From: Caldisericia bacterium | GTDB lineage: Bacteria > Caldisericota > Caldisericia > JAAYUI01 | Direction of reading: 5' to 3' | NCBI GenBank assembly: GCA_963674785.1 | Contig: OY771555.1 | Location: 1,536,001-1,600,000 of the forward strand | DNA length: 64,000 nt | Notes under the pieces: generated by a model | Told to the model about the DNA's origin: nothing | What the model saw: the letters and a program-made list of their open reading frames with translations, nothing else | Databases searched by the model: none | In this document: positions 4,046 through 22,700 of the stretch, in pieces | Position numbering within the stretch: the first letter of the stretch is position 1 | How the letters are laid out: the number at the start of each line of letters is the position of its first letter | Position numbers and translations under genes: made by a program

Positions 4046-4636
4046 TTAGAATTTCCTGAATACTCCTTTTACTCTACCAACGATAACGACCGATTCTGGA
4101 TTTATTACAGCTGAGTCTTTTTTTGAGTCAGACGGTTTTATAACAATTTTTGTACCAAAATGAAATAATTTTCCCAGTATCGGCTTGTATCCGTCGATTA
4201 GGCCTATAATTGTGTCACCGTCCATAATTCCGTTTCCAGGTATAGCAATTACAAAATCACCATCTCGTACCCCCTCTTCTTCTAGTGATTTTCCCTGGAT
4301 GGCAACAGCAACACAATCAGAGTTTCTCCCAAAGATTTTATTCATCTTCAATGAACCAAGGTCGCGACTTGTTTTGTTAATTATATCTTGAAGAGTTGTA
4401 ATTTTAAGATTCGGTGCACTGAAATCTTTAAGTTGCATTGATCTTGCTTTATTTGGGTGTTTTTCTAAAAAACCTTTACATATCAGCCTTGAAACATGTT
4501 CATGGACTGTAGAAATTGACGATAACCCCATAGCCTCCCTTATCTCATCGAGACTGGGTGCAAATCCGTGATCAATCGAAAAATCACTGATAAAACCGAG
4601 AATATCCTTCTCCCTTTTTGTAAGATATTTTTCCAT
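4046..4636 (-). CDS. lexA: LexA-family repressor with degenerate S24 peptidase domain
   Basis: N-terminal LexA winged HTH (LTKREKDIL...GFAPSLDEI...GLSSISTVHEHVSRL...KGFL...ARSM). The C-terminal domain is S24-like (GKSL..EGVRDGD, IVGRVKGVFR), but the cleavage site and catalytic Lys are not evident. Confidence 0.85.
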   Translation of the reverse strand: MEKYLTKREKDILGFISDFSIDHGFAPSLDEIREAMGLSSISTVHEHVSRLICKGFLEKHPNKARSMQLKDFSAPNLKITTLQDIINKTSRDLGSLKMNKIFGRNSDCVAVAIQGKSLEEEGVRDGDFVIAIPGNGIMDGDTIIGLIDGYKPILGKLFHFGTKIVIKPSDSKKDSAVINPESVVIVGRVKGVFRKF

Positions 4637-4978
4637 TATCGGTCACCTCTCTATCATTCATACGATATTTTCGGCGAATCAGTTCATAAATTTCTCTTAA
4701 CCTTGTGTGTAATAATTTTACGAAAAAAAACCGAAAATGCAAATCGCCAATAGATTTGCTCAAAATACGTCACCCGATGTCTGTAGTTGAGTTTACATGC
4801 ACTTGCTACAAAAACACCTCATATCACTAAATATTGCTCCAGACAGTGATTCTATTCTGTATAAATACACTAAACAGCTGATTAATATATATAAATTATT
4901 TTTATGCAAATATATATTAGTAAAGATATGATAACACTCAAATCAATATATCTACAATAGCAAAAAGCATAAAACCTA

Positions 4979-5380: not shown

Positions 5381-8300
5381 ATGAAGAAGCTGATAAATAT
5401 CGTGTTGTCATTACTTATGATGGCAAGTTTAATAACTGTTTTGCCTATGGCATCAGCAAGTGCTGCAGTTGCGGGAACACTGAATATCACAGTTGATCCA
5501 GCAGTCTGTGGAGAGGGGGCGGAGATTGTTCTTGAGTTTGAACAGGCTCCGGGAACTTTTAGCGGGTTCAACGTAACCTTTCTTGGAGGAGAGCTTCTTC
5601 CACCGACCTCAACCACTTCCTACAATTACTATGTGACTATGACAGTACAGGATAATGATTTGTTCACACCTTATCCTGTTTCTCAGTATATCGAATCGAT
5701 CACCACAAGTGGAAATACGCTTGAGATGAGGTTGATGAATGATTACACAGTCACAGGCACAAATGATGAGGTAAAGATTACCATCAATGAAAGCTTTGGC
5801 ATCAAATTACCACCTTGTCCTAATTGTGGACCACAAAACATTCAGGTTGAGGATGTCGATGCGGCTGGTACTCCATCTGGAGCAATTGCCATTAGCTCGT
5901 ATGAATTGATGGGAAAAGTTACTGAGATCAAGGTTTTGAGCGATCCCAACACTGCATCTTCATCAACATCAAGTTATTACTATGGTTATGGTTCAACTTC
6001 TTCAAATACCAAGTTCGGTGTCCTTTTTAGAAGAGATAGTTGTGGAGCACTCGATACAAATGAGTATATCCAGATAAAGTTTCCATCAAGTTTTGGTGGA
6101 TATACAACTTTCCCTGATGGTTTGCTGGATAGTTCAAAAGTAAGAGTTTGGCATGATCCTGTTGCCCCAATTTTCCAAGATACAGTAAGCCATCTTGATG
6201 GCGCACCATATTGGGTTCCATCAACTTCAGTTCCAGTTCTTGCTGTTGAGGCTGACTCAACACAAAGAACGATCACTGTGTATCTTGATGCTGGTGCATC
6301 AATTGCAGCAGATGACTATGTTAGTGTGATTTTTGATAAAGATATTGGCGTATCTCTTCCAACCACTGCGGGTTACCAGACGATTGAGGTTTCAACAACC
6401 GAAGAGTCATATTATGCAACTTCACCAGATTTTATGGTTGCAAATCAGGCTACCGTTGTTGCAAGATCAAATGCCGCAGGAGCTCAGGATGTTGAATACA
6501 ATATCGAGTGGAGTTTGCCAACTGGAATCACGCTCTCGGGAGATGCAGGGGACTGGATTGAGATTCAATTCCAGGATCTAGAAAATCTGAATTGGCCACT
6601 TTCCTCAAACACCCCGTTTGCACCCGGAATTGGCAATTATCCACCAACAGTCGCATTCACAAATTCTTCATACAGTTATTATTATAGTGATGTTGAATAC
6701 GGATCTGTTGTAGAGCCAACAGCACCAACTGCAACATTAAGAATCTATCTTCCACTTGGATATACTATCACTTCGGGCTCAAAATTTACCATGACTATCG
6801 ATCATCCAACACTCGACAACAATGTTAACCCTGGAAGATATAGGGTTATGCTCAAGCATAATAAAGATACTTCAAATACCTGGTCGTACTCAAATTATTT
6901 TGCTTTAATTGATGGAGTAATCTTCAATAGTGGATATGTCATTGTTGAGCCACCAACAGTAAGTAAAGAAGCTCAGTACACAATCCTCTTCGAAGTTGGA
7001 CAGGAACTTAGACCAGGTCAACAGATATTCATTGAATTCCCACAGGAAACTTCATTCACAAATTATACATCAATTCCAGCAGGTGGAGTCTGGTTGGTTT
7101 GGGATACGGTTACACCAACGTTTGGGGCAGATGATTGTGATATTAATTACAATACTGGAACGTGGGTTGAAGGCTTGCCGAGACCTCTTGAATTGAATCC
7201 GTCGATTTCAACAACAGGAACCAATAGAAAGGTAACCCTCACGCTTCCAGGTTCACCAGGTGATTATGTTATTAATGACACCGGTGATAATTTTGTTGCG
7301 ATCAGATTCTGTCTGAATGCTGGCATAAAAAATCCAATGACTGCAGGAATCTATAATCTTGAGGTTTCCACAACAACTCAGCCTGAAAGCTCTCTTTCTG
7401 CCCCATACACAATATCAACCTCGATTACAAATGTTGAGGTAACACCAACACCAAATGCAACATGCTCAAATGGAGTCCAGTATGAGGTCTCATTCAATAC
7501 AGGCGCAAACGGTGGGCTTGATGGTTCAGCCGGTGACTATATTGATATTGATTTCAGAGATCTAAACAAAAATCCTGCCCCTGATTATGCTTCAATCCTA
7601 AATACCTTTGAGTCAACCCAGGCTGTAACTGAAGTATCAGGATATAGTTCACCACCATTTGCAAGTTCAATGGCTTATTGGACAATCGGATTTAGAACCG
7701 GTGCTGCATTGGTTGCAGGCGATACAATTGATCTTCAATTCCCTCCGAATGTCACAGTTCCTGGAAGCATAAATGCAACAGATGTATTTATTTTTGATGC
7801 AACAGTTGCAGCACCAAGCATCTTTGATAACGATGTTCTTGGTGCAGGAGTTACCAATCCATCTGCAGTTGTTGTGGATGGAAACAGAATTACTCTTACA
7901 ACTTCCGCGGGATATGTGATTGACCAGATGATCTATATTAGATTCAGAAGGGCAGCAGGAATCATCAATCCATCTGCTCCAGGTTCAGCATACACAGTTA
8001 AGGTTGCAACATTGCAGCAGCCATATTTTACGCCAGGATTCTTTGCAATCACCGAAGACTTTATTCCGGATTACGGTGCACAGGTACCAACAGCTGATCC
8101 TGAGTGGAGAACAAATACAGCCCCAAGCCCTCTTACCGATGTATTCTGCCCAACTCCAATCCCAAATTCTGCAAGCTCTCCAGCACAGTATATCTTCTCA
8201 GTAAGAACACACGAAACTTGTCAGTTTTCTGGGTCAACTCTTACCGTCCAGTTCCCACAGGGGACATATATTCCAAGTTCAATTGACCCAAGTTTTATTC

Positions 8301-11300
8301 AACTTCGAACACAGGCAGATACTGCATTTTTGTTTGCACCAGATTCTGCATGTTCAACAGGAACATCAACGCCTGCATCGGTTACAATCGATCAAACAGC
8401 AAGAACAATTTCATTCCCTCTTCCTGCAGCATTCAATGCAACTCAATTTGCTCATGTTCTTATCTGTAGAGACGCTGGAATCAGAAACCCTCCAACAGTT
8501 GGTGTCAATTATCAGCTTGGAATTACTATTCAAGGAACAGCAGGTTGTTCTGGTGGTGAGGTTGAAGTAAAGGCCACTTCAGAATATTTTGCAATTACAC
8601 CTGCACCAATTGGTGGAATTATCCCACCACTCCACACAATAAACATTGGCGGTGGTTATTATTATTATGGTTATTCATCAAACCACCCAAGCAGTGTTGT
8701 CGCAATTGGACCACAGGCACTTAGAATTTATTTACCAGCAGGTCTCAAGATTCAGCAGACCCAGTCAGTTACAGTTACCTTCACAAGTGCATCAGGTCTT
8801 GTAAACACTTGTACAGAAGGTGGATATATTGCAAAAGTCAGGACATCAAAAGAAACATCATGGGTTGATAGTACTCAATATTCAATTGTTGATACCGTGC
8901 AGTTTAGTTGCGGAACATATCCTGATGTAAATCCACCATCCACATCAACTGAGGCACAGTATGATTTGAGTTTCACAGTTGGACAAACTGGTGGACTTGA
9001 AGCTGGTGTTGATACAATCACTGTTGCATTCCCAAGTTCAACAACCATGAATAGTTTTAACATGCCGGCAGGATCAATCTATGTTTCAACTCTCCCAATT
9101 ACTGGAGGGTGCCCTGCTGATTCTCCAGCAAAAGTTGTCACACTTCCTCCAACTGCCTCAGGAACGGCGGTAACATTTACTACACCAATCCATATTGGAA
9201 ACAGTCAAACGGTTTATGTCAGATTCTGCAAATCTGCAGGAATCAAAAACCCATATCAGGCTGGAAGTTATACGCTTCAAGTGAAAACATCGAAACAACC
9301 TAACTATGGTATCTCCTGTAGATATGCAATTGGAACAGCAATTTCTGACGTACAGGTTGAACCGATCCCAGCATCAGCTTGCAACGAAAATACTCAGTAT
9401 AAGCTCACATTTAAACAGGGAAGTTCGGGAGGACTTAAGGGTTCGAACGGTGACTATATAGATATTGATTTCTATCATCCAGATAACCCTGGAACTGATA
9501 TGGCTTCTATAAGCAATATCTTCACAGCTATAAATACTCCATCACCATCATCGGTCACAGTTAGTCCATACGGATATTCGTACAGTTATGGCAATAGCTA
9601 TGCTAGTGCTGTTGAATGGGTGGATACGCCACAAGGGAAGAAACTGAGGGTGTATGTACCCGCAGACTTCACCTCATCATCCTCTGGACAGATTACCGTG
9701 ATATTTGAATCAGGTGCTGGACTTGATAATACCTGCTTCCCAGCACAGTACAAAGTTAGAGTCAGCACAAGTCTTGAACAGGAAGAGGTTGATTCCTCTC
9801 CGTATTCCATTGAAGATGCTCCAAGACAGATTACAGTTGATGTCAATCCATCAACGATCTCAGAGGAAGCTGAATACACAATCAGATTCCAGGTTGGTGC
9901 AAATGGTGGCTTGACTGCAAACTCTGACACAATCACAATCGCATTCCCATCGGGTACAACTGTTCCTTATAACTCGATTTCAGCAGGCTCAATATGGATT
10001 GCGGAAGCATCAGACTTTACAAGCACTGGTTGTCCACCAACTCCTGTTGGTGGTGGGTCAGCTGTGCAGGTACAACTCCCACCAGATATTTCAGGTCAAA
10101 GTGTTACTTTCACAACACCAATGAATATTTCAAACAATGCACAGGTTGTTGTGAGATTCTGTCTTAATGCGGGAATCAAGAATCCATATACTGCTGATGC
10201 CTACAGACTTCAATTGAAGACATCCAAACAATCTGCATATGGAATATCTGAGCCATACGCAATTACATCAGCAATCTCTGATGTTAAAGTCTCGCATACA
10301 CCAAACATTATTAATGAGTGTGATGTTGAAGTAGAAGTGGAATTCAAAAATGCAAACACAAGCTTGTCGGGTGACCTTGGAGACTATGTTGATATTCAGT
10401 TCCAGGATTTTGTAAAGAATCCAGGCCCAGATTATGCATCAATCTCAAATAACTTCTCATCAAGCACCTCAATTGCAAATCTTACCGTTCATCCATTGAC
10501 ACAGCCATTTGATGCCACTGCAGTTCCATGGAATACATCAAGATGGGATATTGATTTCATGACGGGAACTGGTGGAGCGTTAACTACTGGTGACACAATT
10601 GTTCTTGATTTCCCCGCCAACTGTTCAATGACAGTTGCATCGCTTACAAACAGACTTTTCCTTTCTGATGAACAGTGGGATGAGTATTCATTCTATGCTG
10701 GTGATAACTATATCAATGCCGGTGGAGTAGCAAAACTTGCCGTTCCAGCTGCAATGATAACCGTTGTTGGAACAAGGGTAACAATTACAAACCCACCAGT
10801 TGCAGCAGGAGGAATTGATGTTGGAGATGGTGAGACTGTTTATATCAGAGTTCTCCAACAGGGAATCACAAATCCATCAACTGCCGGAGACTCATATGTT
10901 CTTCAAGGATACACAAGTACTCAGCCAACATCTGCAAACTCAAATTACTTTGGAATTTCCTCACTCAGACCAACAAGAGCTCCAGTCCCAATTATTGATA
11001 TGAACTGGGTTGGCCCTAACCCAATTCATAAACTTCCACCAAGCATACACACAAGCACTGCAGGACAGTCAGCTCAGGTGGACTTGATGCTTGAACTCAG
11101 ATCTAACTTTGATTCAACACTTCTCCCAACACCACAGCTTTCTGTTACCTTCCCAACTGGATTTGTAGTTCCATCATCTATTTCTGCAAATGACATTTGG
11201 TTATCTGTTGCAACAGCACCTGCTGGAGTCGGATATCCATTCCTCAATTGCTCAAATTATATGGGGACTCCATTTGTTGACTCAACAGCTCCAGCGGGAA

Positions 11301-14300
11301 CATTCGGTCCACTTGACAATACTCCAACTGTTTCTGGTAACACTGTAACATTTGATGTCCCAGCATTTTTTACGGCAGCAAATGCTATACCAGGTGCAAT
11401 TGTTTACATTCAGTTTAGACAATCAGCGGGAATCAGAAATCCAACAACAAATGCAACAAACACATATGCAATCGATGTCTCAGGAACTGATAACGCTGGA
11501 GTATCCGGTTCTTGTGGATCGGAGTATGTACCAGTAACACCACTTGAAAATCCAGCCTCAGCTACCTCAATAAATCCATCATCAATTACTCTCGGAACAA
11601 GCTATTCAGGAAGCTATACAACTGGATCAGTTCATCCTTCAAAGGTTGTTGCTCTTGGTGACAAATATCTGAGAATTTACTTGCCACTTGGATTTACATT
11701 CAGTGCAAACACAACTGCAAAAATCAAATTCGAAAAATCCGCAGGTCTTTGTAATACCGGAACCGCTGGAAGTTATATTGCAAAAGTTAGCACCTCAAAA
11801 GAATCAACGATGATCGAGTCGGCACCTTATTCGATTATTGCTGCTGTCACCGGTGTCAATGTTATGGTAGTTCCACCAGTCATCAATATGTATGCAAATT
11901 ATACAATCGACTTTGTTGACTCTTCATCAGGTGGATTATCAAAAGGAACTGGTACCATAACAATTGCCTTCCCAACTGAGACAGGTGTTCTGACCTCAAT
12001 TGCAGCAGGAACTGTCTATGTTGCAAAGAATGTTAACTTTGACAACAGTATCTGTCCACCGACTCACAGTGGAGTCTTTGGAACAGACTATGCACCACTT
12101 GAAGCACCACCAGTTGTTTCTGGAAAACAGGTCACACTCACAGTGCCAATCAATATCGACCCTGGTGATCATATCTACATCAGATTCTGTGAAAGCGCAA
12201 AAATCAAAAACCCTGCAACTGCGGCATACTATACGCTTCAGGTCATGACATCTGCACAACCCGACTTTGTTGTTTCAAACCCATATGCAATCAAGAGTGG
12301 ATTGAATCTACCAGAAGTTGAAGTTATTCCAAATTCAATCAGTAGATCAGGAAGCACAGCCAGACTTGCTGCAAACGCAACAGGAACAAATGTCATTGAA
12401 CTTGATACAGTCTCTGGTTGGATTGCAGGAGACCTCATTCTTGTTGGTGATGTGAGTCATCCATTTGGTGCAGGAGCCGTATTTACCAGTGTCACTTCAG
12501 TTGATACCATAAACAACACATTAACACTTTGCGACAATGTACCTGCGACATTTACAACTGGAACTGAAGTATACAGGTCAAGAACTGGAATCTTTACAGG
12601 CGCAACAAACGACCCAGCTCCTGGTAATAACTTTGTTGATGTAACCGCAGCAACAAGAGATTTGTTCCCAATCAGTTCATACGTTGCACTGATTGATTTG
12701 ACCGGTACAAATTGTCCTGAGTTGTTCCTTGTCTCATCACATATGTCCGCTACAAGACTTGGTCTCTCTAGAAATATCGTTGCTGACTTCCCTGCACCTG
12801 GAAACACAAGAGTTGAACTTGTACAGTTCCATCAACCAAATGATGGATGTTCAGGTGACACATTTGCCGAGACAAAAATCACATTCAAAACTGGTTCATC
12901 GGGAGCTCTTCTTGCAAACAGAGACAAGATATATGTTGCTCTTGAATATGCTCCATCAGTAAATGACAGGGGTTATCATATAACCGGATCATCAATTTCA
13001 TCCGGAAGTGTAATGGTTAATGATACAGTGTGTTCAGTTGCACCAACAATTGGAATTACACCAGTTGGTGGAGTGTATACACCATCACCAACTCCAACAT
13101 TTGGAAGTGATTATGTAACACTTGAAATCACCGTGCCAGAGGATATCTCGGGTGGACAAGAAGTTGTTTTAAGAATCCTTCCAAATTCTGGAATTCCAAA
13201 CCCATATGTTGCTGGAAGCTATACTCTTGCAGTTTGGACAAGTATTGAACAGTCAGCAAACGAATCTCGAACCTATGAAATAGTTGATGGTGTAGCATTC
13301 GATGTTAATGCTGTGACAGTTACTCCGCCAAGCACATCTGAGAACGCAAGCTATGTTGTTGACTTCTATACCTGTGTTTCACTTACTGAGAATTATGACA
13401 CCATCACAATCACATTCCCAGATGATACTGTTGTACCAGCGTCAATAATGCCAAATCATATCTTTATAGACGATGATCCAGTATTTGATGGAACAGTATC
13501 AGATGCGACTCCTCATCTTCAGGCACTTGCTCCGATTATTGTAGATAGCGGTGAACGTTCTATTACATTTACAACTCCTATGAGTTTCAGTGGAAACGAT
13601 AATCACGTGTATGTTAAATTTACGTATGAGGCTGGCCTGGTTAACCCGTCAGTTGCTGACTCATATAGGTTAAAAGTAAAAACAAGCAAGCAGCCAAAGG
13701 ATGTTGAAAGTCCGTATTATGAGATCAGAGATACATCTTCAAAGGCTATTGTTTTTCCAAATCCACCAACAGCAAATAGAGAAAATGTTGAATACACAAT
13801 TACATTCACACTTTCAACAGCTGGAAATCTCACAAAAGACATCAGTTGGGTAAAACTTCAGTTCCCTGATAACGATATCTACGGACTTGGTGGTGGATAC
13901 TCAACAGTTGAAGCATTACTTCCAACTTCCATTTCACCAGACAACATTACCGTCAACGGAACAAGGCTTACTGTCATCCCAACTGTTGATACAGTTGATA
14001 GAACTTTGAAGCTCATCGTTCCAGAAACGATTGAAGCCGGCGAAGAGATTGTGATTGTGATCCAGTCTGGTGCAGGTATTACAAACCCAGTTGTTGGATC
14101 ATACAGAATGGGTATTCAGACCTCAGTTGAACCCGTTTACATCGATACTGAGATTTACACCATCAAATCAGCCCTGGGTGGAACTGCCGGTTCACTTAGT
14201 CCAGAAATTTGCCTTTCCTATGACTATTCGGTTCTGACTGCAAATGAGGCTGCTGCAGCAACACCAGTTTTGAATGTTGATTCAGTTAGAAACTGGAGTG

Positions 14301-17300
14301 TCGGGGATATCGCTGTTATTGGTGATATGACAAGCACAAATATGTCAAATATTTTTGCAGCAAGAGTTGACACAATTGGTGCTGCTACAAATGTGCTCAG
14401 ATTCACAGTTCCACTTGATTTCAGTGTTCCTCTTGGTACCCCAGTATTTAGAATGAAAGAGATTCCAACAAGCGCAACACTTACTGGTCCTGGTGCCCCA
14501 GTACCAGCGGGAAGTGCTTTCATTCGAGTAACTGACCCCAGCCCATTTACTGCAGGAGACGTGATTGTATTCGGTGCTGGCTCAGGAGCAGAAGTCGTAA
14601 GAATCACAAGTATCAACGGAACAAGATTGGATGTTACCCCACCGCTTAGAAGTGCTCATGCCGTTGGTGCCGAGGTATCGATTGTTGCTTGCAATGTCGG
14701 TCTTGTAAATGCCGAAGGCTACTACATGATTCATTTTATAACTGGAGCAACAGGTAATCTAAACCAGGCCGTTTCGACAATAACTATGATATTCCCGTTT
14801 GACATGTATGTTCCTGAATCAATAGTTGCATCATCAATATCGCTCTCAATTGATGGAATCAATTTCACACAGTGTCATGATATCGATATTGATAGCGAAA
14901 ATCGAAAAATAACTCTTACGGTTCCGACATCAGTTCCATCAAACCATGATGCCTATATCAGGATAACAAATAAATCCGGAATCAGGAATCCATCTGTTCC
15001 GGGTAGTGTTTATAGGATGCAGCTTGCAACTTCCTCAGAACCGGATTTTGTTGATACAAGATCGTTTGTGATTGAAGGAGCAGGTGCTCCAACCGTTACT
15101 GTTAATCCATGTACCGCTGGTGAGGTTGGTGCGATCCATATTATTGAATTCTATATTACAAATTCGATACCACAGGGTGAGACCATCACAATTACATTCC
15201 CTGCTGACTACATGATGCCATCTGTTGTCAGACAAGAGAATGTCAAAGTTAATGGTACACAGGTCAGAGCTCCTCTTATTGGACCAACCGCAGACAATGA
15301 AATTGTAATTACCGCACCAAAAGATCTTCCATCATCTGGTAAGGTGACAGTTGAATTCCTTGAAGAATTCAAGCTTAAAAATCCTCCAACACCTGGTCAT
15401 TATAGACTTAAGATTAGAACAAGCATTGAACCAGATAACCTTGATGTTGATTCGAACAACTATTACATCTGTCCTGAGGTGCAGCTTTCTAGTCTGGTTC
15501 TTATTCCCTCATCTTTATCTCTAGGGATAAATCAAACAGGTCAGGTTCAGGCACAAGCTAAAGATGAGAATGGTGACAATATCTCTTACAATGTCGACTA
15601 CTCATGGCAGACCGACATTGGTGTTTTGTCTGGAATCACTGGAGACAGTGTTTCACTTACAGCTCCCGGTTCAGCAGGTTCAGGTATTTTGAAATGTGAA
15701 GCAAAGTACAATGGTCAAACTTTGTCTGCTCAGTGTGCAGTAACCATAACACCTCCCCTTGGGAGCGTTGTAATTACTCCCTCTACACCAAAATCTCTTG
15801 GGTTTGGTGTAACGCAAACTTATGTTGCAACAGCAAAAGATACCTCAGGTAACACAATGACTGGTGCAGCATTTGCGTGGTCTGTTACTGGTGGTATCGG
15901 CTCGCTTAGTCCAATATCTGGTAATACAACGACTTTGACAACTGGATCAACTGCTACATCTGGAACAGTTGTTTGTACTGCATCTTATGGTGGTGACACA
16001 AAATCAACCTCTGCAACTGTAAGCGTTCAGTCCAGTGGTGGGGGTGGCACTGACCCAGGTACCGATCCTGGCACAGATCCTACCTATATTGTCTCTGCTA
16101 CTGTAACACCAACTACTCATACGATAACCAGTAACCTCAGTGCTTTAACATTCCAAATAACAGCTTTGGATGACCTATCTGGTGGTCAGATAAGACTTTC
16201 AGTTCCATCTGGTTGGAGTTTCCCAAACTCTAACAACATGAGTGTGAGTGCTCCAGCGGGTGTTGTTGTTGGTACACCACAGTATTCCTCTTCAATCCTT
16301 ATTCTTCCAATTACAACTATGCCTAAAGGCAAAGCAATAAGTGTACAGTACCTTGCTCCAAATTATCCAACATCAGCCGGTGTACACACATTTAGTGTTT
16401 ATGCAAACAAAAACGGTGAAGCAACACAGGCTGCCGTCAGACAGCCAACGGTTACACTTATCGATTCGGGTGGCGGGACAACTACCAATGCCTCTGGAAC
16501 TGGTAAGTGCACAGTTGCTCCAACAATTGCATCATCAGGTGCACTCGGTGCAAAGTTTACTTTCACATTTGTTGCCGAAGTGGACATGTCTGATGGTGAG
16601 GTTCAGATTTATATACCAACAGATTGGACAGCACCAACTATGTCTCCAGGTGCAAAAGGATTTATCCAAATAAAGAATGCGACAGGAGAGGTAACCTTGT
16701 TGCAGGTTCTTCCTGGTGGAATCATTTCGCTTAATCTCGGAACCTTCCTTAAACACAACCAGGTTTCTGTAGAATACACAAATGTTGATGTTCCAGCAGA
16801 AGAGAAAACATATACATTTAATGTGAAAACTGCAGGTGTTAGTGGGGAGCTTAAAAACATCGCTGTTCCACCATCTGTTACCCTTGAAAGAACTAGGGTT
16901 ACTGCTGTCACATGCACACCAAAACCAAACTCTGCTGGTGGTGTAGCAAGCTATCAAATCACGTTCAGAACATCGGATGCTGGAACGCTTACAAAGGATC
17001 AATCGTTGGTTGTAATCAACTTCCCATCAGACACTGAGCTTCCAGGAAGTATAGCTCCATCATCAATAACTGTTCAGAAAGTCCCACTTATTGCACCACC
17101 ATCTATCAATCCTACAACACGTGATATTGAATTTACAGTTCCGACAGATGTTCCACCAAATACAACCGTTGCTGTAACATTTGAAACAACTGCTGGAATC
17201 ATCAACCCAACGAGTCCAAAAAACACTTACAAGATTACTGTTAAAACCTCATCTGATGCGACACCAGTTCCATCAAGTAACTATGCAATTGAAGCATCTA

Positions 17301-19435
17301 CAATCAGTACTCCTGATGTGACTCCTGACCCAGTTGTAACAAGTGCTGAGGCGAAATACACAATCAAGTTCAAGGTTGGTGGTTCTGGTGCACTAAAGCT
17401 TGGAACAGGCCAGATCGTGCTTAAATTCCCGAATGATACCTATATCCCAGCAAGCATTCAGTCTGGACATATCACTGTAAACGGAAAGGTACTCACAAAG
17501 AGACCAAATGTTGATACAGTAGCGAGAAAAGTTGCAGTTTATGTGCCAACTCCAGTTCAAGCAGGGGAAGAGGTAACCGTTGAGTTCTCAAAAGATGCTG
17601 GACTCAAAAATCCAACTAAGTCCGGAAATTACACAGTTTGGGCAAGCACAACCTCTGAGTCAATTGAGGTTGAATCCAACTCATACGGAATCGGAGAGTC
17701 GACGGTCTCAAACGTTAGAGTCGAAAGCAGTTCACTTGATTCTGGTGATACTTGTGTTGATTATGAGATAACATTTAGAACCGGAAGTTTTGGTTCGTTG
17801 ACATCTGCATCCACAATCACTGTTTGGTTCCATCCAAACTATAAGATCGGATCAATCAGCAAAGAGAGAATCACTGTAAATGGGGCAACAATCAAAAATA
17901 CTCCAAAGATTCAAAATAGTCAGTACATCACTTTCGATGTTCCACAGTCTCTCAATGCGGGAACAGATGTGACAGTCAAAATCAAATGTTTGAATAATCC
18001 AACAACACCAGGTCAGTATGAATGCAAAGTCAAAACCTCATCTGAACCAACATTGATTCAATCTAACACATACAAAATCGGTGAATCGATGAGTACAAAC
18101 ATGACAATCTCACCTGCCTCACCAAATGGCGACAATGGTTGGTACAATACAAATCCATCCATCATGTTTGATTGCAATGTCAACTCTGCAACTACTTACT
18201 ACACACTTGATGGAGGAAATAGAAAGTCATGGGCTAGTGTTCCAATCAGACTCGAAGATGGTGTTCACACAGTCCAGTATTGGTCAGAAGCTGACGGATA
18301 TAACGAAGAACAGAAACAGACAGTTTCGAATATCAAAGTTGATACCACAAAACCAATCCTCACAATCAATGAACCACAAAATGGTATCACCGTTGGTTCT
18401 GCAAAACTTGATCTTTCAGGAACATTTGATGAAGAAAATATTCTTGAGATAACAGTCAGCAATAACGGATCAAGCTCAGTAACAAGAATGACCTTTGACA
18501 AAAACGCAAAAACTTGGCAGGGTTCAGTCATGCTTGTTAAGGGTACAAATGTTCTTGATGTAAAAGCATATGATGAAGCTGGAAATGTCAGCTTCACACC
18601 AATTCTGACAATCAAGTATGAACCGGGTTCAGGTGATGGCGAATGTGCTATGATAGTTGTCAGTCCAAAGGATAATCAGGAACCTGTCGGTGGTGTACTT
18701 TTGGTCAATGAAGATCAGGCCGGTTATCATCATCTCGAAATGGATCTCCTTGTTCAAGCAACGACAACTGCAACAAATCCAACGGTTGAGGTAAGTTCTG
18801 AGCATGACCCAGATAATTGGATTGAAGTTCCATATGATTCTGTCAAGAAGGAAGCAAAAGGAAACGTTCAACTCAAGGCTGTTGCTGGAAACAATAAGGT
18901 TACAATCAGGCTTAAGGATTCATCAGGCAATATTTGTGGAACACCTGTAAACAAGATTGTTCTTTGTAAGGTTCTCGTTCATTTTGTTAACCCAAAGGGA
19001 TTTGATTCAACTATTAATGGACAACCTAATCCAAATATGCCTCCAGAATGTGACCAACTATTGTTCAATGGTAAGCCAATTACAAATCTTGATTCATCTC
19101 CATACATTGATAACGCAGAGGGAAGAACTTATGCACCTCTAAGACTTGTTGCAAATCTGTTTGGCGGAGTTGTCGGATGGGATGACACAACAAAAATGGT
19201 AACTGTTGATTTCGAAGGTAAACAATTAGCTTATAAGTTGGGTGCATCTTCTGCGACATTAACAGATGCCGATGGAAATAAATCAACCATTCAAATGGAT
19301 TCTAGTGACCCTAATGTTTCAGCAAAAACTGTCGCTAACAGATCGTATGTCCCATTAAGGATGTTTGATACTGCATTTGGATGGAGAGTTGGATGGGATG
19401 GCGATACTAGAACCGTTTCATTTGAATACCCATGA
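5381..19435 (+). CDS. Giant exported repeat protein (4684 aa) with C-terminal copper-amine-oxidase-N-like (stalk) domain; probable surface/envelope structural protein
   Basis: Signal peptide MKKLINIVLSLLMMASLITVLPMASASA and AGGAG SD. About 20 copies of a ~130-aa module (YxIxFxTG..GxL...ITIxFP...AGIxNP..AGxYxLxVxTS.EP...S..YxI), Ig-like domains, and C-terminal PYID..GRTYAPLR...VGWD / NRSYVPLR...VGWD repeats. Confidence 0.85.
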   Translation: MKKLINIVLSLLMMASLITVLPMASASAAVAGTLNITVDPAVCGEGAEIVLEFEQAPGTFSGFNVTFLGGELLPPTSTTSYNYYVTMTVQDNDLFTPYPVSQYIESITTSGNTLEMRLMNDYTVTGTNDEVKITINESFGIKLPPCPNCGPQNIQVEDVDAAGTPSGAIAISSYELMGKVTEIKVLSDPNTASSSTSSYYYGYGSTSSNTKFGVLFRRDSCGALDTNEYIQIKFPSSFGGYTTFPDGLLDSSKVRVWHDPVAPIFQDTVSHLDGAPYWVPSTSVPVLAVEADSTQRTITVYLDAGASIAADDYVSVIFDKDIGVSLPTTAGYQTIEVSTTEESYYATSPDFMVANQATVVARSNAAGAQDVEYNIEWSLPTGITLSGDAGDWIEIQFQDLENLNWPLSSNTPFAPGIGNYPPTVAFTNSSYSYYYSDVEYGSVVEPTAPTATLRIYLPLGYTITSGSKFTMTIDHPTLDNNVNPGRYRVMLKHNKDTSNTWSYSNYFALIDGVIFNSGYVIVEPPTVSKEAQYTILFEVGQELRPGQQIFIEFPQETSFTNYTSIPAGGVWLVWDTVTPTFGADDCDINYNTGTWVEGLPRPLELNPSISTTGTNRKVTLTLPGSPGDYVINDTGDNFVAIRFCLNAGIKNPMTAGIYNLEVSTTTQPESSLSAPYTISTSITNVEVTPTPNATCSNGVQYEVSFNTGANGGLDGSAGDYIDIDFRDLNKNPAPDYASILNTFESTQAVTEVSGYSSPPFASSMAYWTIGFRTGAALVAGDTIDLQFPPNVTVPGSINATDVFIFDATVAAPSIFDNDVLGAGVTNPSAVVVDGNRITLTTSAGYVIDQMIYIRFRRAAGIINPSAPGSAYTVKVATLQQPYFTPGFFAITEDFIPDYGAQVPTADPEWRTNTAPSPLTDVFCPTPIPNSASSPAQYIFSVRTHETCQFSGSTLTVQFPQGTYIPSSIDPSFIQLRTQADTAFLFAPDSACSTGTSTPASVTIDQTARTISFPLPAAFNATQFAHVLICRDAGIRNPPTVGVNYQLGITIQGTAGCSGGEVEVKATSEYFAITPAPIGGIIPPLHTINIGGGYYYYGYSSNHPSSVVAIGPQALRIYLPAGLKIQQTQSVTVTFTSASGLVNTCTEGGYIAKVRTSKETSWVDSTQYSIVDTVQFSCGTYPDVNPPSTSTEAQYDLSFTVGQTGGLEAGVDTITVAFPSSTTMNSFNMPAGSIYVSTLPITGGCPADSPAKVVTLPPTASGTAVTFTTPIHIGNSQTVYVRFCKSAGIKNPYQAGSYTLQVKTSKQPNYGISCRYAIGTAISDVQVEPIPASACNENTQYKLTFKQGSSGGLKGSNGDYIDIDFYHPDNPGTDMASISNIFTAINTPSPSSVTVSPYGYSYSYGNSYASAVEWVDTPQGKKLRVYVPADFTSSSSGQITVIFESGAGLDNTCFPAQYKVRVSTSLEQEEVDSSPYSIEDAPRQITVDVNPSTISEEAEYTIRFQVGANGGLTANSDTITIAFPSGTTVPYNSISAGSIWIAEASDFTSTGCPPTPVGGGSAVQVQLPPDISGQSVTFTTPMNISNNAQVVVRFCLNAGIKNPYTADAYRLQLKTSKQSAYGISEPYAITSAISDVKVSHTPNIINECDVEVEVEFKNANTSLSGDLGDYVDIQFQDFVKNPGPDYASISNNFSSSTSIANLTVHPLTQPFDATAVPWNTSRWDIDFMTGTGGALTTGDTIVLDFPANCSMTVASLTNRLFLSDEQWDEYSFYAGDNYINAGGVAKLAVPAAMITVVGTRVTITNPPVAAGGIDVGDGETVYIRVLQQGITNPSTAGDSYVLQGYTSTQPTSANSNYFGISSLRPTRAPVPIIDMNWVGPNPIHKLPPSIHTSTAGQSAQVDLMLELRSNFDSTLLPTPQLSVTFPTGFVVPSSISANDIWLSVATAPAGVGYPFLNCSNYMGTPFVDSTAPAGTFGPLDNTPTVSGNTVTFDVPAFFTAANAIPGAIVYIQFRQSAGIRNPTTNATNTYAIDVSGTDNAGVSGSCGSEYVPVTPLENPASATSINPSSITLGTSYSGSYTTGSVHPSKVVALGDKYLRIYLPLGFTFSANTTAKIKFEKSAGLCNTGTAGSYIAKVSTSKESTMIESAPYSIIAAVTGVNVMVVPPVINMYANYTIDFVDSSSGGLSKGTGTITIAFPTETGVLTSIAAGTVYVAKNVNFDNSICPPTHSGVFGTDYAPLEAPPVVSGKQVTLTVPINIDPGDHIYIRFCESAKIKNPATAAYYTLQVMTSAQPDFVVSNPYAIKSGLNLPEVEVIPNSISRSGSTARLAANATGTNVIELDTVSGWIAGDLILVGDVSHPFGAGAVFTSVTSVDTINNTLTLCDNVPATFTTGTEVYRSRTGIFTGATNDPAPGNNFVDVTAATRDLFPISSYVALIDLTGTNCPELFLVSSHMSATRLGLSRNIVADFPAPGNTRVELVQFHQPNDGCSGDTFAETKITFKTGSSGALLANRDKIYVALEYAPSVNDRGYHITGSSISSGSVMVNDTVCSVAPTIGITPVGGVYTPSPTPTFGSDYVTLEITVPEDISGGQEVVLRILPNSGIPNPYVAGSYTLAVWTSIEQSANESRTYEIVDGVAFDVNAVTVTPPSTSENASYVVDFYTCVSLTENYDTITITFPDDTVVPASIMPNHIFIDDDPVFDGTVSDATPHLQALAPIIVDSGERSITFTTPMSFSGNDNHVYVKFTYEAGLVNPSVADSYRLKVKTSKQPKDVESPYYEIRDTSSKAIVFPNPPTANRENVEYTITFTLSTAGNLTKDISWVKLQFPDNDIYGLGGGYSTVEALLPTSISPDNITVNGTRLTVIPTVDTVDRTLKLIVPETIEAGEEIVIVIQSGAGITNPVVGSYRMGIQTSVEPVYIDTEIYTIKSALGGTAGSLSPEICLSYDYSVLTANEAAAATPVLNVDSVRNWSVGDIAVIGDMTSTNMSNIFAARVDTIGAATNVLRFTVPLDFSVPLGTPVFRMKEIPTSATLTGPGAPVPAGSAFIRVTDPSPFTAGDVIVFGAGSGAEVVRITSINGTRLDVTPPLRSAHAVGAEVSIVACNVGLVNAEGYYMIHFITGATGNLNQAVSTITMIFPFDMYVPESIVASSISLSIDGINFTQCHDIDIDSENRKITLTVPTSVPSNHDAYIRITNKSGIRNPSVPGSVYRMQLATSSEPDFVDTRSFVIEGAGAPTVTVNPCTAGEVGAIHIIEFYITNSIPQGETITITFPADYMMPSVVRQENVKVNGTQVRAPLIGPTADNEIVITAPKDLPSSGKVTVEFLEEFKLKNPPTPGHYRLKIRTSIEPDNLDVDSNNYYICPEVQLSSLVLIPSSLSLGINQTGQVQAQAKDENGDNISYNVDYSWQTDIGVLSGITGDSVSLTAPGSAGSGILKCEAKYNGQTLSAQCAVTITPPLGSVVITPSTPKSLGFGVTQTYVATAKDTSGNTMTGAAFAWSVTGGIGSLSPISGNTTTLTTGSTATSGTVVCTASYGGDTKSTSATVSVQSSGGGGTDPGTDPGTDPTYIVSATVTPTTHTITSNLSALTFQITALDDLSGGQIRLSVPSGWSFPNSNNMSVSAPAGVVVGTPQYSSSILILPITTMPKGKAISVQYLAPNYPTSAGVHTFSVYANKNGEATQAAVRQPTVTLIDSGGGTTTNASGTGKCTVAPTIASSGALGAKFTFTFVAEVDMSDGEVQIYIPTDWTAPTMSPGAKGFIQIKNATGEVTLLQVLPGGIISLNLGTFLKHNQVSVEYTNVDVPAEEKTYTFNVKTAGVSGELKNIAVPPSVTLERTRVTAVTCTPKPNSAGGVASYQITFRTSDAGTLTKDQSLVVINFPSDTELPGSIAPSSITVQKVPLIAPPSINPTTRDIEFTVPTDVPPNTTVAVTFETTAGIINPTSPKNTYKITVKTSSDATPVPSSNYAIEASTISTPDVTPDPVVTSAEAKYTIKFKVGGSGALKLGTGQIVLKFPNDTYIPASIQSGHITVNGKVLTKRPNVDTVARKVAVYVPTPVQAGEEVTVEFSKDAGLKNPTKSGNYTVWASTTSESIEVESNSYGIGESTVSNVRVESSSLDSGDTCVDYEITFRTGSFGSLTSASTITVWFHPNYKIGSISKERITVNGATIKNTPKIQNSQYITFDVPQSLNAGTDVTVKIKCLNNPTTPGQYECKVKTSSEPTLIQSNTYKIGESMSTNMTISPASPNGDNGWYNTNPSIMFDCNVNSATTYYTLDGGNRKSWASVPIRLEDGVHTVQYWSEADGYNEEQKQTVSNIKVDTTKPILTINEPQNGITVGSAKLDLSGTFDEENILEITVSNNGSSSVTRMTFDKNAKTWQGSVMLVKGTNVLDVKAYDEAGNVSFTPILTIKYEPGSGDGECAMIVVSPKDNQEPVGGVLLVNEDQAGYHHLEMDLLVQATTTATNPTVEVSSEHDPDNWIEVPYDSVKKEAKGNVQLKAVAGNNKVTIRLKDSSGNICGTPVNKIVLCKVLVHFVNPKGFDSTINGQPNPNMPPECDQLLFNGKPITNLDSSPYIDNAEGRTYAPLRLVANLFGGVVGWDDTTKMVTVDFEGKQLAYKLGASSATLTDADGNKSTIQMDSSDPNVSAKTVANRSYVPLRMFDTAFGWRVGWDGDTRTVSFEYP
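16046..16081 (+). repeat. GTDP x3 linker repeat inside the giant protein
   Basis: SSGGGG-TDPGTDPGTDP; degenerate 12-nt tandem repeat. Confidence 0.7.
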
Positions 19436-19743: not shown

Positions 19744-22700
19744 ATGAAGAAGGTATTATCCGTACTTATTGTCTTTTTGATGATTATAATTATGGTTCCG
19801 TTTCAACCGGTTGAAAATGTCCAGGCTTCAGGAAATGTTATTTCGTACGTATATCTGGCTGGAACTACAACCGAGGCGATAGCAATTGCCAGAACAGGCG
19901 GTAACCAGATTCAGTTTGTATATACGCTTGCTCAGGAAGCTATAGCACAGCAGCACGATGATACAGCAACTCTCAGTTGTATTGCACCGGAGGCAGATCG
20001 TCTGCATGGTGTAAAAATCGTTATTCCAAATTATTTCCCACTACCATCACTTGATGCAACTGCTGAGGGTTATATTGATTTTACAGGTGGTTCAATTACA
20101 CCAAGTCCTGTCAGAATCGATAACAGAACGGTCTACGCATATTTCCCGACTGGAAGTATTGGTGATACAATAGTTGTTACATATGGTAATGCTACCACTG
20201 GTATTGTGATGCCTGACCGACCAAATAGATACAGTTTTTCATTTGGTGCAAGGATTTCAACCACTGAATGTACATATTGTCCTGGAAACATGAAAGACTA
20301 TTCCTCCGCAACGACTGGATTTCAGACAGTTTCACCTACCCCTCAAGTATATGTTATGACAAACATGACTCCTGCAACCCTCACATTTGATCCAAACACA
20401 GAGCTTACTAATTCAGAACTTACCGTAAACTTTGTGCTTGGAGCAGGTGAAGATCGTTCACTTTTTGCCGGTGACATCATCAGAATGCAACTTGACTATG
20501 ATGCTGCAACTGCTGCCTTTGTTGTTGATGCTGGTGCGGGTCTTCTTCCGAGAACCACGCAGGTTCCACTTTCAATCAATAAGGATTATGTGAAAGTAAA
20601 TGGTTCAAAATGCTCGGTTAGTCCGACGGTAACCATGATGGGTTCAGGCAACTACCAGATTGATGTATTTATTCCGAGAGACATCAGATGTACAAACACA
20701 ACAGGACGAGCTGTCTCGATTGTCTTTGATAAATCAGCTGGGATCATCAATGGTGCCGGTGCACCATTTGAGAGAAATGCACTGATTCAAACTCTCAGGG
20801 GAAGCTTAGTTCATGTTGAACCAAATCCTGATGTGACAGACGGTGTTGTTGATGGATTCCTGACATCTACTGCTTACAGGATTGGGTCTCAGGTTACCTC
20901 TCCCGCAGTAACTGTCATTTCAAATCAGGTTGAAGAAAATGCAGTTTACTATATTGGTGCAATCTCAAACCCTGGTGCATCCCCTCCATATATTATTCCT
21001 GCCTGCGGAACCCAGGGGTCGCTTCAGATTGGTGGAAATGGAACTCTGCTTGCAAATGACGGAACAATTACTGTTCAGTTCCCAGCAGGAACTGAAGTTC
21101 CAAGTTCAATGTCTCCAGGTTCAATAACAGTTGAAAACATCACAACAGGCTCTGGTCCAAATGTTGTCAGTTCAGTCCCTCAGGTTTCAAGTAACAAAGT
21201 AACCATGAAAACACCTATAGATATTAATCCAGGTGATTGTATCATGATTACTTTCCTGAAAAGTGCGCATATTGTGAACCCATCTGTTGGAAAAGATGAT
21301 TATTATCTGAATGTCTGGACAAGTGCAGAACCAACAGTTATCTCATCCATGCTTTATTCAATTGTTAACCCTGGATGGGCTGTTGTAAACGTTTTACCTA
21401 ACATATCGTTTACAGATGGTGCTGGATTCCCACCAGGACAGTCAGGACTCGGTATCAATGAATGTTCAGAACATTACCAGCTCAATGACCCTGCTGGTAA
21501 CCCAACACAGGGAGCAAGATACACAATTCAATTCTCACTTACAGAGGACTCAACAGTTCCAGTTGGCGGTTTTATTGATTTGATTTTTGATCCTGCTTAT
21601 TCAGCACTTATTGGTCTTGTAAACCTTGCAAGCCCACAGTTTATAACTGTTAATGGTGTCTCTTGTACAGTTGCTGCGGTTACCTCTGTACCAAACAGAG
21701 CAATCAGAATAACAACTCCAGTTGTACTTAATCCAAGTACACAGGTTACAATCACACTTCAAGAAGGCTTCCAGCTTTATAACCCAGACCTCTATGATGA
21801 AACAGAATCGTTCAACATCAATATTGATTATCTACCACTTGGTGCTGTTGGTGCAGGTGGGTTTGATGTTATTTCTGAACCTTACATGCTCAAGTGTGAG
21901 GTAAGCAATGTCAATTACACTGTTGGTCAACAGGCTGTTCAGACAATAACAGACTGGTGGATTGATTTCTGTCTTGGTGATGTTGGCGATAACACATTCC
22001 TCGGAACATCAAATCTTCTTCCTGGTGATACCATTTCCATCATGTTCCCTGAAGGTTCATATGTTCCATCTGGAATAATTCCATCTGGTTCGATTCAGAT
22101 TATGGATATGTCTATCCCACCTGGCCCTCCATGGCCAACATATTCTGTAACAAGTGCATATTTTGATGAAAATGTTTTAATTTTAACAGTTCCATCTGGT
22201 GCAGCATTTACCGAAAACTCAACACTTCAGATATTTGTTCCTCAGAGTGTTGGAGTTAAAACCCCAGAGGATCCAACATGCATGTCAGTTGGTGTTCGAA
22301 CATCAAAAGAAACAACATGGGTACAGAGTAATCCAGTTTGTGTCGGAACAACTGTAAAAGATGTTGGTGTGATTGCCTCTCCAAACACATCTGAATCGAT
22401 CAATGAAAATTGTGCCCCTGCATCGTCAGAATACACAATTAGATTCAGAAATGGAAGCTATGGTGCGCTTTCTCCTGGTAACTTTATTTCACTTGCAATA
22501 CCTGCAAATCCTGTAAATGCTGGTACAAACTCAGTTGGGTTTGACATTGATATTGACGATGACTCAGCAATTGGTGCAGGTGATGATATTGCGATGGGCA
22601 ATATCCTTCTAAATGGTATTCCAAATACCACTGCTTTAACGTGGTATGACCGATTTGATGGATACTACTACATCAACATTCCTGTTCAGACTTATATTGC

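Follow-up and report, generated by a model that had tools for sequence, protein, structure and literature searches.

Two A modules of P0001 are each interrupted by two complete modules in what we regard, with a probability of roughly 0.8, as a genuine nested (discontinuous) domain architecture, and structure predictions indicate that the rod of the protein probably carries two side arms. P0001 is encoded in the window (the whole 64,000-nucleotide stretch of DNA analysed here) and is judged, from its N-terminus and a Cu_amine_oxidN1 domain, to be a giant that an uncultured Caldisericales bacterium secretes to its cell surface. It is a chain of about 24 Ig-like β-sandwich modules belonging to one uncharacterised family that is faintly DUF2808-like.

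Module order and family assignments of P0001

An iterated generic module profile of 144 positions matched P0001 in 24 pieces, of which 20 are full modules. The remaining four are partial: two N pieces, at residues 694-748 (profile 3-58) and 1641-1701 (profile 1-64), and two C pieces, at residues 1083-1174 (profile 45-138) and 2061-2163 (profile 40-144). Exactly two full modules lie inside each N/C pair (758-885 and 928-1049; 1719-1861 and 1897-2042), and the inserts as wholes span nt 7652-8605 in unit 1 and nt 10520-11509 in unit 2. The module order is two rounds of A, B, split A, B (Table 1), and a single colinear HSP joins residues 365-1329 with residues 1332-2316 (E 1e-110, 32.8% identity, 1032 columns). 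The claim of a first-pass annotation of this DNA that every second A module is split is correct. The boundaries which that annotation gave for the intact A modules (approximately 6490-6905 and 9395-9815) and for the halves and inserts of both split units are only tens of bases away from ours.

Table 1. Coordinates of P0001 and its modules in the window; residue number = (nt-5381)/3+1.
Feature	Residues	Window position (nt)	Strand	Basis or remark
ORF of predicted secreted surface protein P0001		5381-19435	+	4684 aa; holds the whole finding
Intact A module 1	364-515	6470..6925	+	Generic profile 6-137; best match is the other intact A, 29% identity, E 4e-10
B module 1	524-689	6950..7447	+	Generic profile, module-versus-module comparison
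Split A unit 1, N half (first two to three strands)	691-757	7451..7651	+	Generic profile 3-58; A profile 2-62, E 3e-17; 57% identity to intact A; models
Inserted full module I1a	758-895	7652..8065	+	Generic profile 1-127
Pro-rich linker I1a/I2a	896-927	8066..8161	+	Model 207-233 pLDDT <50; least conserved part, 0 invariant columns
Inserted full module I2a	928-1075	8162..8605	+	Generic profile 1-118
Split A unit 1, C half (remaining strands)	1076-1176	8606..8908	+	Generic profile 45-138; A profile 57-154, E 3e-28; BLASTP; models
B module 2	1185-1328	8933..9364	+	Generic profile, module-versus-module comparison
Intact A module 2	1331-1488	9371..9844	+	Generic profile; AF2 pLDDT 72.6, pTM 0.77
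B module 3	1490-1639	9848..10297	+	Generic profile, module-versus-module comparison
Split A unit 2, N half	1641-1713	10301..10519	+	Generic profile 1-64; A profile 2-55, E 6e-12
Inserted full module I1b	1714-1869	10520..10987	+	Generic profile 7-135; pairs with I1a, 35% identity
Linker I1b/I2b, unit 2	1870-1893	10988..11059	+	Gap between module matches
Inserted full module I2b	1894-2043	11060..11509	+	Generic profile 5-128; pairs with I2a, 31% identity
Split A unit 2, C half	2044-2163	11510..11869	+	Generic profile 40-144; A profile 52-149, E 6.5e-26
B module 4	2165-2315	11873..12325	+	Generic profile, module-versus-module comparison
C-terminal Cu_amine_oxidN1 domain	4562-4680	19064..19420	+	76.9 bits, cut-off 24.2

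The N-terminus of P0001 (MKKLINIVLSLLMMASLITVLPMASASA) resembles a Sec signal peptide, as judged by eye. Cu_amine_oxidN1 (PF07833) scores over its cut-off and occurs here without the amine oxidase catalytic domain. The family has 148 matches in the organism's own 2.23-Mb genome and is attached to more than 100 of its proteins; presumably it is an envelope-association module that holds proteins at the envelope. The product of a neighbouring gene also ends in Cu_amine_oxidN1. Searches at E <=1 (Pfam, NCBIfam) detected no RTX repeats, T1SS features, CnaA/CnaB or LPXTG families in P0001, Pfam gave no PA14, lectin or vWA domain, and NCBIfam returned 0 families for the whole protein, while inspection of the C-terminus (...RTVSFEYP) by eye revealed no LPXTG or membrane anchor. 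The sole Pfam family touched by the modules is DUF2808 (PF10989), which on the whole protein reaches 34.2 bits (E 3e-8, cut-off 25.3), with its best stretch at residues 4034-4092 (profile 72-129 of 146). Single modules match it weakly (3/20 at E <=0.01, best E 8.5e-5), and the first module, at 17.1 bits, falls below the 25.3 cut-off. The module profile found one match among PDB sequences, which was not significant (E 0.34).

Evidence for two halves of one domain

When an intact A module (residues 1335-1480) was compared by BLASTP with residues 690-1180, two separate matches were obtained: its residues 5-47 corresponded to P0001 700-743 (57% identity, E 3e-12) and its residues 86-145 to P0001 1112-1171 (43% identity, E 2e-12), with approximately 370 residues separating the two. 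Against residues 1640-2160, its N part matched 1648-1717 (36%, E 2e-7) and the remainder 2024-2155 (33%, E 2e-14), so that BLAST E values for halves against intact A run from 2e-7 to 2e-14 overall. An A-specific profile of 157 positions, built only from 12 intact A modules, matched each of the 13 nested units in seven proteins as two pieces, and the break was nearly constant on this profile, the N piece ending at 53-71 and the C piece starting at 39-61 in 13/13 units. Reciprocal best matches linked A2N to A4N and intact A, and A2C to A4C and intact A, while those of the inserts were generic B-like modules and each other. The chain leaves the split A at a conserved motif, NPxPD[YF]ASIxNxF. Hence the two A copies described earlier as split at one point, with two complete modules between the halves, are recovered by BLASTP, the generic profile and the A profile, and each half aligns with the corresponding end of the intact module, N-terminal or C-terminal.

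The layout is rare within the module family and well kept where it occurs. It was found in 8 of the 159 module-bearing proteins examined and is absent from the other 151, and all seven relatives found retain it, from 77% down to 31% identity where measured. The pattern N-F-F-C (N piece, two full modules, C piece) appears twice each in P0003-P0007 and P0011, and once in P0008 alongside one truncated copy; every complete unit found holds exactly two inserted modules. Pairs of orthologous units are on average 59-68% identical in the N half and 63% in the C half, compared with 39-50% in I1/I2 and 30-38% in the linker, and invariant columns make up 28% (N half) and 13% (C half) versus 3-4% in the inserts. 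In these alignments, the halves evolve together and more slowly than the insert.

Structure models (AF2 or ESMFold2) were made for unit 1 and for an intact A module, from shallow alignments of 12-13 rows, half of them paralogous units; unit 2 is placed by sequence evidence together with its rows in alignment A1. The AF2 model of residues 690-1187 (13-row alignment) has a mean pLDDT of 76.3 and a pTM of 0.70, with ten-residue block means of 70-92 in the N half and 63 to 92 in the C half, and is consistent with the anticipated single sandwich built by the halves around the insert. Strand order matches between the AF2 models of intact A and of the nested unit: both contain strands 12-17 and 31-35, a helical turn and the strand after it occupy 61-67 of intact A and 395-401 of the split unit, and later strands correspond in the same way (82-86 with 416-421, 93-97 with 424-428, 109-114 with 440-445, and 132-135 with 463-466). 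Because the strand orders of intact and split A correspond, the insertion point is placed in a loop. Moreover, when the halves were given as separate chains of 58 and 99 residues, ipSAE was 0.72, 0.73 and 0.72 in three runs versus 0.00 in each of three controls, against a mark which is reached by 116/157 solved complexes and 2/215 mismatched pairs and is approximate here, our own alignment having been used. These predictions contain 258-270 contacts, at least 94% of which agree between runs, and interleave the strands of the two halves, with C strands 424-428 and 463-466 flanking N strand 31-35 and C strand 441-444 lying beside N strand 13-16. Together the halves reach a pLDDT of 76-78; if an unrelated protein takes the place of the partner, the C half is left with 41-42 and the N half with 35, which argues against their folding as independent domains. 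The predictor would be able to pass two halves of one domain from general Ig-fold knowledge alone.

Both inserted modules and intact A are predicted Ig-like sandwiches that share their nearest solved folds: YcnI, YweA, pilins, MSCRAMMs and cohesins. For I1a (model 58-204) the match is YweA (5mkd_A, Z 10.1, rmsd 3.2, 115 aligned), and for I2a (model 232-386) YcnI (7me6_A, Z 10.0, rmsd 2.8, 117 aligned). With the whole nested model, the 50 matches listed by VIA-align all lie within model residues 55-389, on the inserted modules (58-386) and not on the split host; this is understandable, as intact A alone reaches Z 6.4 and the last match listed has Z 6.6. Mfa5 (6to1) and PitA (7w6b) are among the structural matches listed, with discontinuous chain ranges. 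Foldseek with the same model against the PDB returned generic multi-Ig adhesins only (UafA 3irz, E 1.6e-8; CNA; SdrG), at TM-scores of 0.14-0.33 and rmsd of approximately 13-38 Å, which are uninformative on the split.

Proposed architecture and alternatives

In the proposed architecture, the chain would exit the A sandwich at the motif given above, after the first two to three strands, build two complete modules joined by a proline-rich linker of about 25-30 residues, and return so that the remaining strands interleave with the first ones and close a single sandwich. A rod-like trunk would pass through the split host module, with the two inserted modules hanging at its side. In the linear parts of P0001, linkers between successive modules are only 2-10 residues long, and module ends therefore probably lie at opposite poles. 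If so, one module alone would be unable to come back into the loop it had left, whereas a pair folded back as a hairpin could, which would explain why the insert always consists of two modules. The arm would have roughly the length of one module and carry the variable linker at its end, though a linker of about 30 residues exceeds the need of a tight hairpin, and the arm may be otherwise arranged. Closure within one chain and arm geometry are deduced from pLDDT, pTM, DSSP and the two-chain prediction; thus the branched scaffold with two-domain side arms that the first-pass annotation proposed is favoured by prediction, with the shape of the arms read from topology. The conserved host halves would form the structural trunk and the faster-evolving arms the exposed part, possibly ligand-binding or lattice-contacting, and P0001 itself possibly serves in adhesion, a lattice or a sheath. 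Before the sampled Caldisericales lineages diverged, a single insertion event would have been followed by tandem duplication of a super-repeat of about 970 residues (A, B, split A(I1, I2), B).

An alternative is that the N half of one unit finds its complementary C half in another unit or molecule, through strand exchange of the kind known as 3D domain swapping, such that split modules polymerise or cross-link the giants into a surface lattice or sheath rather than closing on themselves. Complementation in trans is physically plausible given that association is predicted even for halves supplied as separate chains, the halves of units 1 and 2 are alike (mean identity 48% for N and 40% for C halves), and the long flexible linker within the insert could permit opening. 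We nonetheless consider exchange quite improbable: the AF2 monomer gives both halves fairly high confidence with no second chain, proximity favours intramolecular closure, there is no sign of oligomers here, and the known split Ig-like domains in the available text of PMC7835359 close intramolecularly. Slimmer still are the prospects of a more elaborate form, in which the split A modules would be assembly devices (donor-strand or domain-swap) that knit the giants of this BamA-less, little-studied phylum into a branched lattice or sheath with the fast-evolving arms exposed.

It is very unlikely that the pieces are decayed remnants of unequal recombination, serving as linkers or independent folds in a protein that is still beads on a string. 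Truncated repeats are often found in repeat proteins, and the match of intact A to 2024-2155 spans the whole A module and at first resembles a complete one. On the other hand, the pieces are complementary at about one profile position in every unit, they are the most rather than the least conserved part of the unit, the layout persists at the lowest identity measured, and an N piece of about 57 residues (two to three strands) recovers its confidence only with its partner. This reading was rejected, being contradicted by the two-chain prediction, the A profile split and the conservation. Finally, there is virtually no chance that repeats were mis-joined or the gene miscalled in a metagenome-assembled genome, for although the gene is long and repetitive and its relatives come from metagenome bins, a single ORF, uninterrupted over 14 kb, contains every coordinate annotated earlier, its repeats (approximately 25-50% identical at the protein level) are too diverged for mis-assembly, and an assembly artefact is excluded because the order of pieces recurs in seven other proteins from independent assemblies and at six genome loci.

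With the nested architecture preferred, a repeat giant can be branched even though its sequence suggests beads on a string, and a linear repeat map would then give both the wrong number of domains and the wrong length. Host and guest come from one module family, and intact and split hosts stand side by side as a natural matched pair; the insertion history can be read from the sequence, and the construct boundaries in Table 1 are usable for structural work. P0001 is the largest surface protein of Caldisericales, a lineage for which literature searches turned up no account of surface proteins, work on pseudomurein being irrelevant. A specialist would be interested rather than surprised.

Comparison with known systems

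Nested modules had been called unusual for repeat surface proteins. The layout is rare within this module family, but the general claim is overstated, since split Ig-like domains are known in RTX adhesins and in Mfa5, RrgA and GBS104. In the RTX adhesins FrhA of Vibrio cholerae and MpIBP of Marinomonas primoryensis, the available text describes a split Ig-like domain that projects an inserted domain off axis, both ends of the insert lying on one side (PMC10865825). P0001 resembles them in having a split Ig-like domain in a very long rod-like repeat protein. However, what they carry as insert is one ligand-binding domain with a fold unlike that of the host (sugar-binding, peptide-binding or PA14), whereas that of P0001 is two modules of the host's family, and P0001 also differs in phylum and presumed anchoring (Cu_amine_oxidN1). 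In Mfa5 of Porphyromonas gingivalis, D2 is described in the excerpt available as an IgG-like sandwich with its first two strands before the insert and the rest after it, sharing the domain structure of D2 in the tip pilins RrgA and GBS104 (PMC7835359). The predicted break in P0001, after strands 12-17 and 31-35 and a short third element, is comparable. The insert of Mfa5, RrgA and GBS104 is a vWF/MIDAS domain, in contrast to two Ig-like modules in P0001, and the Mfa5 host domain is locked by an isopeptide bond; sequence similarity of P0001 to these three is not detectable. For RrgB, the accessible portions of PMC10619420 and PMC3132780 report side-by-side packing of D2 and D3 and nothing further on nested domains, and a literature search for nested or inserted domains in RrgA gave no match.

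Among solved folds, YweA and YcnI come closest to the inserted modules, with scores of the kind that Ig-like sandwiches commonly give, and no DUF2808, YweA/BslA or YcnI protein is a nested multi-module giant. Split Ig-like hosts form an architectural class rather than a homology family, and P0001 shares with that class a single sandwich made from two non-contiguous segments, by prediction, and an autonomously folded insert (two full-length modules, Z ~10 to solved Ig-like domains), while the ligand-binding insert of a different fold and sequence homology to those adhesin families are not shared. RTX adhesins and tip pilins already provide established cases of a split Ig-like domain projecting an insert, and the new part is an insert made of a pair of modules from the host's own family, in a little-studied phylum.

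Splitting of the A module and predicted folding of its halves

The first-pass annotation had proposed that A modules of the 4684-residue surface protein are interrupted by pairs of whole modules, and this was confirmed with an intact A module, a generic module profile and an A profile, all of which return separated N and C pieces. When intact A (residues 1335-1480) was compared by BLASTP with residues 690-1180, it gave two matches lying far apart, with its residues 5-47 aligning to 700-743 (57% identity, E 3e-12) and its residues 86-145 aligning to 1112-1171 (43% identity, E 2e-12). The other split copy gave the same picture. The generic module profile (iterated, 144 positions) was seeded with a B module and not with an A module, which makes it an unbiased test. 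It found 24 pieces in the protein, 20 of them full length, and each N/C pair of partial pieces (see table) encloses precisely two full modules. The A profile (157 positions), built solely from intact A modules (12, taken from this protein and the loci of six relatives), matched all 13 nested units (an A module split around two inserted modules), always as two pieces. Its N piece ends at position 53-71 and its C piece starts at 39-61, with neither loss nor duplication at the junction. The coordinates originally assigned to the split were correct to within tens of bases.

Coordinates of the genes, module pieces and other segments discussed in the text
Feature	Location	Profile positions	Source
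Gene of the 4684-residue protein	window 5381-19435, + strand
Adjoining gene, 2732 aa	window 19744-27942, + strand
Partial module piece	residues 694-748	3-58	generic module profile
Partial module piece	residues 1083-1174	45-138	generic module profile
Partial module piece	residues 1641-1701	1-64	generic module profile
Partial module piece	residues 2061-2163	40-144	generic module profile
Inter-module segment, first	window 12326-12856 (residues 2316-2492)
Inter-module segment, second	window 14186-14704 (residues 2936-3108)
Non-module stretch between modules 21 and 22	window 15494-16924 (residues 3372-3848)
Cu_amine_oxidN1 in the window	19064-19420 and about 27595-27921		Pfam
Shorter module-bearing proteins	about 835500-838200, 1859200-1861400, 1959400-1963000, 1129700		own genome

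An AlphaFold2 model of the first nested unit (residues 690-1187, 13-row alignment; model positions count from residue 690) had a mean pLDDT of 76.3 and a pTM of 0.70. Ten-residue block means were 70-92 in the N half and 63 to 92 in the C half, and the sole long low-confidence stretch was the linker between the inserted modules (207-233). Packing was tested by supplying the two halves (C, 385-483; N, 1-58) as two chains, each with its alignment, which yielded ipSAE values of 0.72, 0.73 and 0.72 in three runs, compared with 0.00 in three of three controls; the benchmark mark for this score, which 116 of 157 solved complexes attained, as did 2 of 215 mismatched pairs, is a rough guide here because a custom alignment was used. 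The two chains made 258-270 contacts, with agreement between runs of at least 94% and partner pLDDT of at least 76, while pairing with an unrelated partner lowered pLDDT to 41-42 for the C half and 35 for the N half. In the lowest-error contacts, N strand 31-35 is flanked by two strands of the C half (424-428 and 463-466), and 441-444 lies next to N strand 13-16; these predicted contacts are those of strands interleaved in one sandwich rather than of two touching domains. The two-chain result supports, without proving, the reading of the halves as one domain; what the predictor knows of Ig folds in general could also yield such a score. For intact A, an AlphaFold2 model (residues 1329-1490, 12-row alignment; pLDDT 72.6, pTM 0.77) has its structural elements in an order identical to that of the split copy, and the models place the insertion point in the loop that follows the conserved ...ASIxNxF motif, immediately ahead of a helical turn and another strand. 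At the level of prediction, the nested reading is supported by the two-chain score, the interleaved strands and the element order of intact A.

A structure search with the AlphaFold2 model indicated that the inserted modules resemble small Ig-like sandwiches, with matches to YweA (5mkd_A; Z 10.1, rmsd 3.2, 115 aligned) and YcnI (7me6_A; Z 10.0, rmsd 2.8, 117 aligned), followed by cohesins, Gram-positive pilins and MSCRAMM domains. Intact A retrieved the same list at lower scores (YcnI: Z 6.4, rmsd 3.5, 105 aligned), and its search returned no chain at Z >= 8. Such matches reflect a shared fold and say nothing about function.

Kinship, distribution and conservation of the nested unit

In all-against-all BLAST, the nearest matches of each N half were the other N half and the corresponding part of intact A; the C halves behaved likewise with each other and with the C part of that module. 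Inserted modules came nearest to their equivalents in the other unit and to generic B-like modules. A single colinear HSP joins residues 365-1329 to 1332-2316 (32.8% identity, 1032 columns, E 1e-110). Together with the consistent module kinship, this indicates that a super-repeat of ~970 residues (A, B, split A containing I1 and I2, B) was duplicated whole, and hence that the insertion occurred once.

Six loci in a set of 185,579 species genomes held relatives of the nested unit; five are titled as Caldisericales or Caldisericia bins and one as an unclassified uncultured bacterium. A search with residues 690-1180 gave eight proteins at E <= 0.001 among 1349 scored candidates. Six of these, the relatives P0003-P0008, cover 98-100% of this query at 77, 73, 70, 43, 35 and 31% identity; both nested units are present in each of P0003-P0007, and P0008 has one whole unit plus the apparent end of another at the protein start. 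A profile of the 13 nested units matched 493 of 1.84 billion representatives at E <= 0.001, and among the best 150 of these 493 only P0004 and P0011, another relative, matched the profile from end to end without a break; P0014, a further match of 650 residues, covers positions 76-505. Run across 159 proteins, the generic module profile gave 1235 module matches, and the pattern N, full, full, C occurred in only eight proteins, namely the subject protein and seven relatives. Unit 1 of P0007 and unit 2 of P0003 went unflagged in that run but were detected in a separate analysis; for the P0003 unit the reason was a C piece (profile 26-144) beyond the cut-offs used. Every complete nested unit found holds exactly two inserted modules, and in its own genome the unit is confined to this one gene.

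The halves are the best conserved parts among orthologous units. Mean pairwise identity is 59-68% in the N half and 63% in the C half, 39-50% in the inserted modules and 30-38% in the linker, and invariant columns make up 28% and 13% of the halves, 3-4% of the inserts and 0% of the linker. On these alignments the halves share one rate, unlike the intervening insert, a pattern that fits a conserved trunk with faster-evolving exposed arms.

Gene and genome surroundings

The nested architecture lies entirely within a single ORF, whose product has an N-terminus resembling, by eye, a Sec signal peptide and carries Cu_amine_oxidN1 at its C-terminus (residues 4562-4680; 76.9 bits against a Pfam cut-off of 24.2). 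Pfam also gave a weak match to DUF2808 (34.2 bits, strongest at residues 4034-4092) and a Glucodextran_B-like stretch below threshold, and an NCBIfam scan of the protein matched no family. The adjoining gene encodes 11 members of this module family, each of full length by the generic module profile, and no nested unit; its product has a tail that is also Glucodextran_B-like with Cu_amine_oxidN1. The other neighbours are ordinary chromosomal genes (RelA/SpoT, LexA, PmbA/TldD, Mur ligases, PBP, MraW, DnaE, PFK).

Two related segments of ~175 residues lie between modules (28% identity, E 1e-6); neither matched a Pfam family at E <= 1, and each has, by eye, two GD-x-I/V-x-x-G-rich sub-repeats. Between modules 21 and 22, inspection by eye found a pair of Big_2-like repeats, a GTDPGTDPGTDP spacer and another pair of repeats of ~120 residues, none of them matched in Pfam at E <= 1.

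In the genome, a single contig of 2.23 Mb, Cu_amine_oxidN1 has 148 six-frame Pfam matches, spread over open frames that number well above 100 and range from about 220 to 4700 aa. It looks like the organism's general surface-protein module, presumably keeping proteins at the envelope. No Omp85/BamA match was found in this genome, at 92% completeness. The module type also occurs in shorter proteins elsewhere in the genome (open frames of 679-1106 aa), at least two of which carry Cu_amine_oxidN1; their coordinates in the table follow the contig, on which the window spans 1536001-1600000.

Proposed arm geometry and split domains of known adhesins

In the proposed arrangement, the trunk would run through the split host module, and the two inserted modules would exit and re-enter it at one loop. 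In the linear parts of the protein, inter-module linkers are a few residues long by the generic module profile, so module termini are probably at opposite poles. A lone module could then not come back to the exit point; a pair folded on itself could, and this need for a folded-back pair would explain the constant insert number of two. Such a pair would put the variable proline-rich linker at the arm tip. The high pTM (0.70 over 498 residues) fits freely jointed beads less well than it does a compact body of three domains.

The literature searched held no description of surface proteins of the Caldisericales, this organism's lineage. Split Ig-like domains with inserts are already established in other bacterial adhesins, so the earlier view of the architecture as unusual among repeat surface proteins is overstated in general; it does hold within the module family (eight of the 159 proteins). 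In the portions of the two papers drawn on here, split Ig-like domains of the RTX adhesins FrhA and MpIBP point ligand-binding domains off axis (PMC10865825), and D2 of Mfa5 is an IgG-like sandwich with its first two strands before an inserted vWF domain and the rest after it, which its authors compared to the same domain of RrgA and GBS104 (PMC7835359). The Caldisericales protein shares with the RTX adhesins and Mfa5 the split-Ig principle, and the approximate break point is similar. Its guest consists of two modules from the same family as the host, unlike those of FrhA, MpIBP and Mfa5. The Caldisericales protein has no sequence relationship to the RTX adhesins or to Mfa5, RrgA and GBS104, and differs from the known adhesins in that intact and split hosts alternate within one chain.
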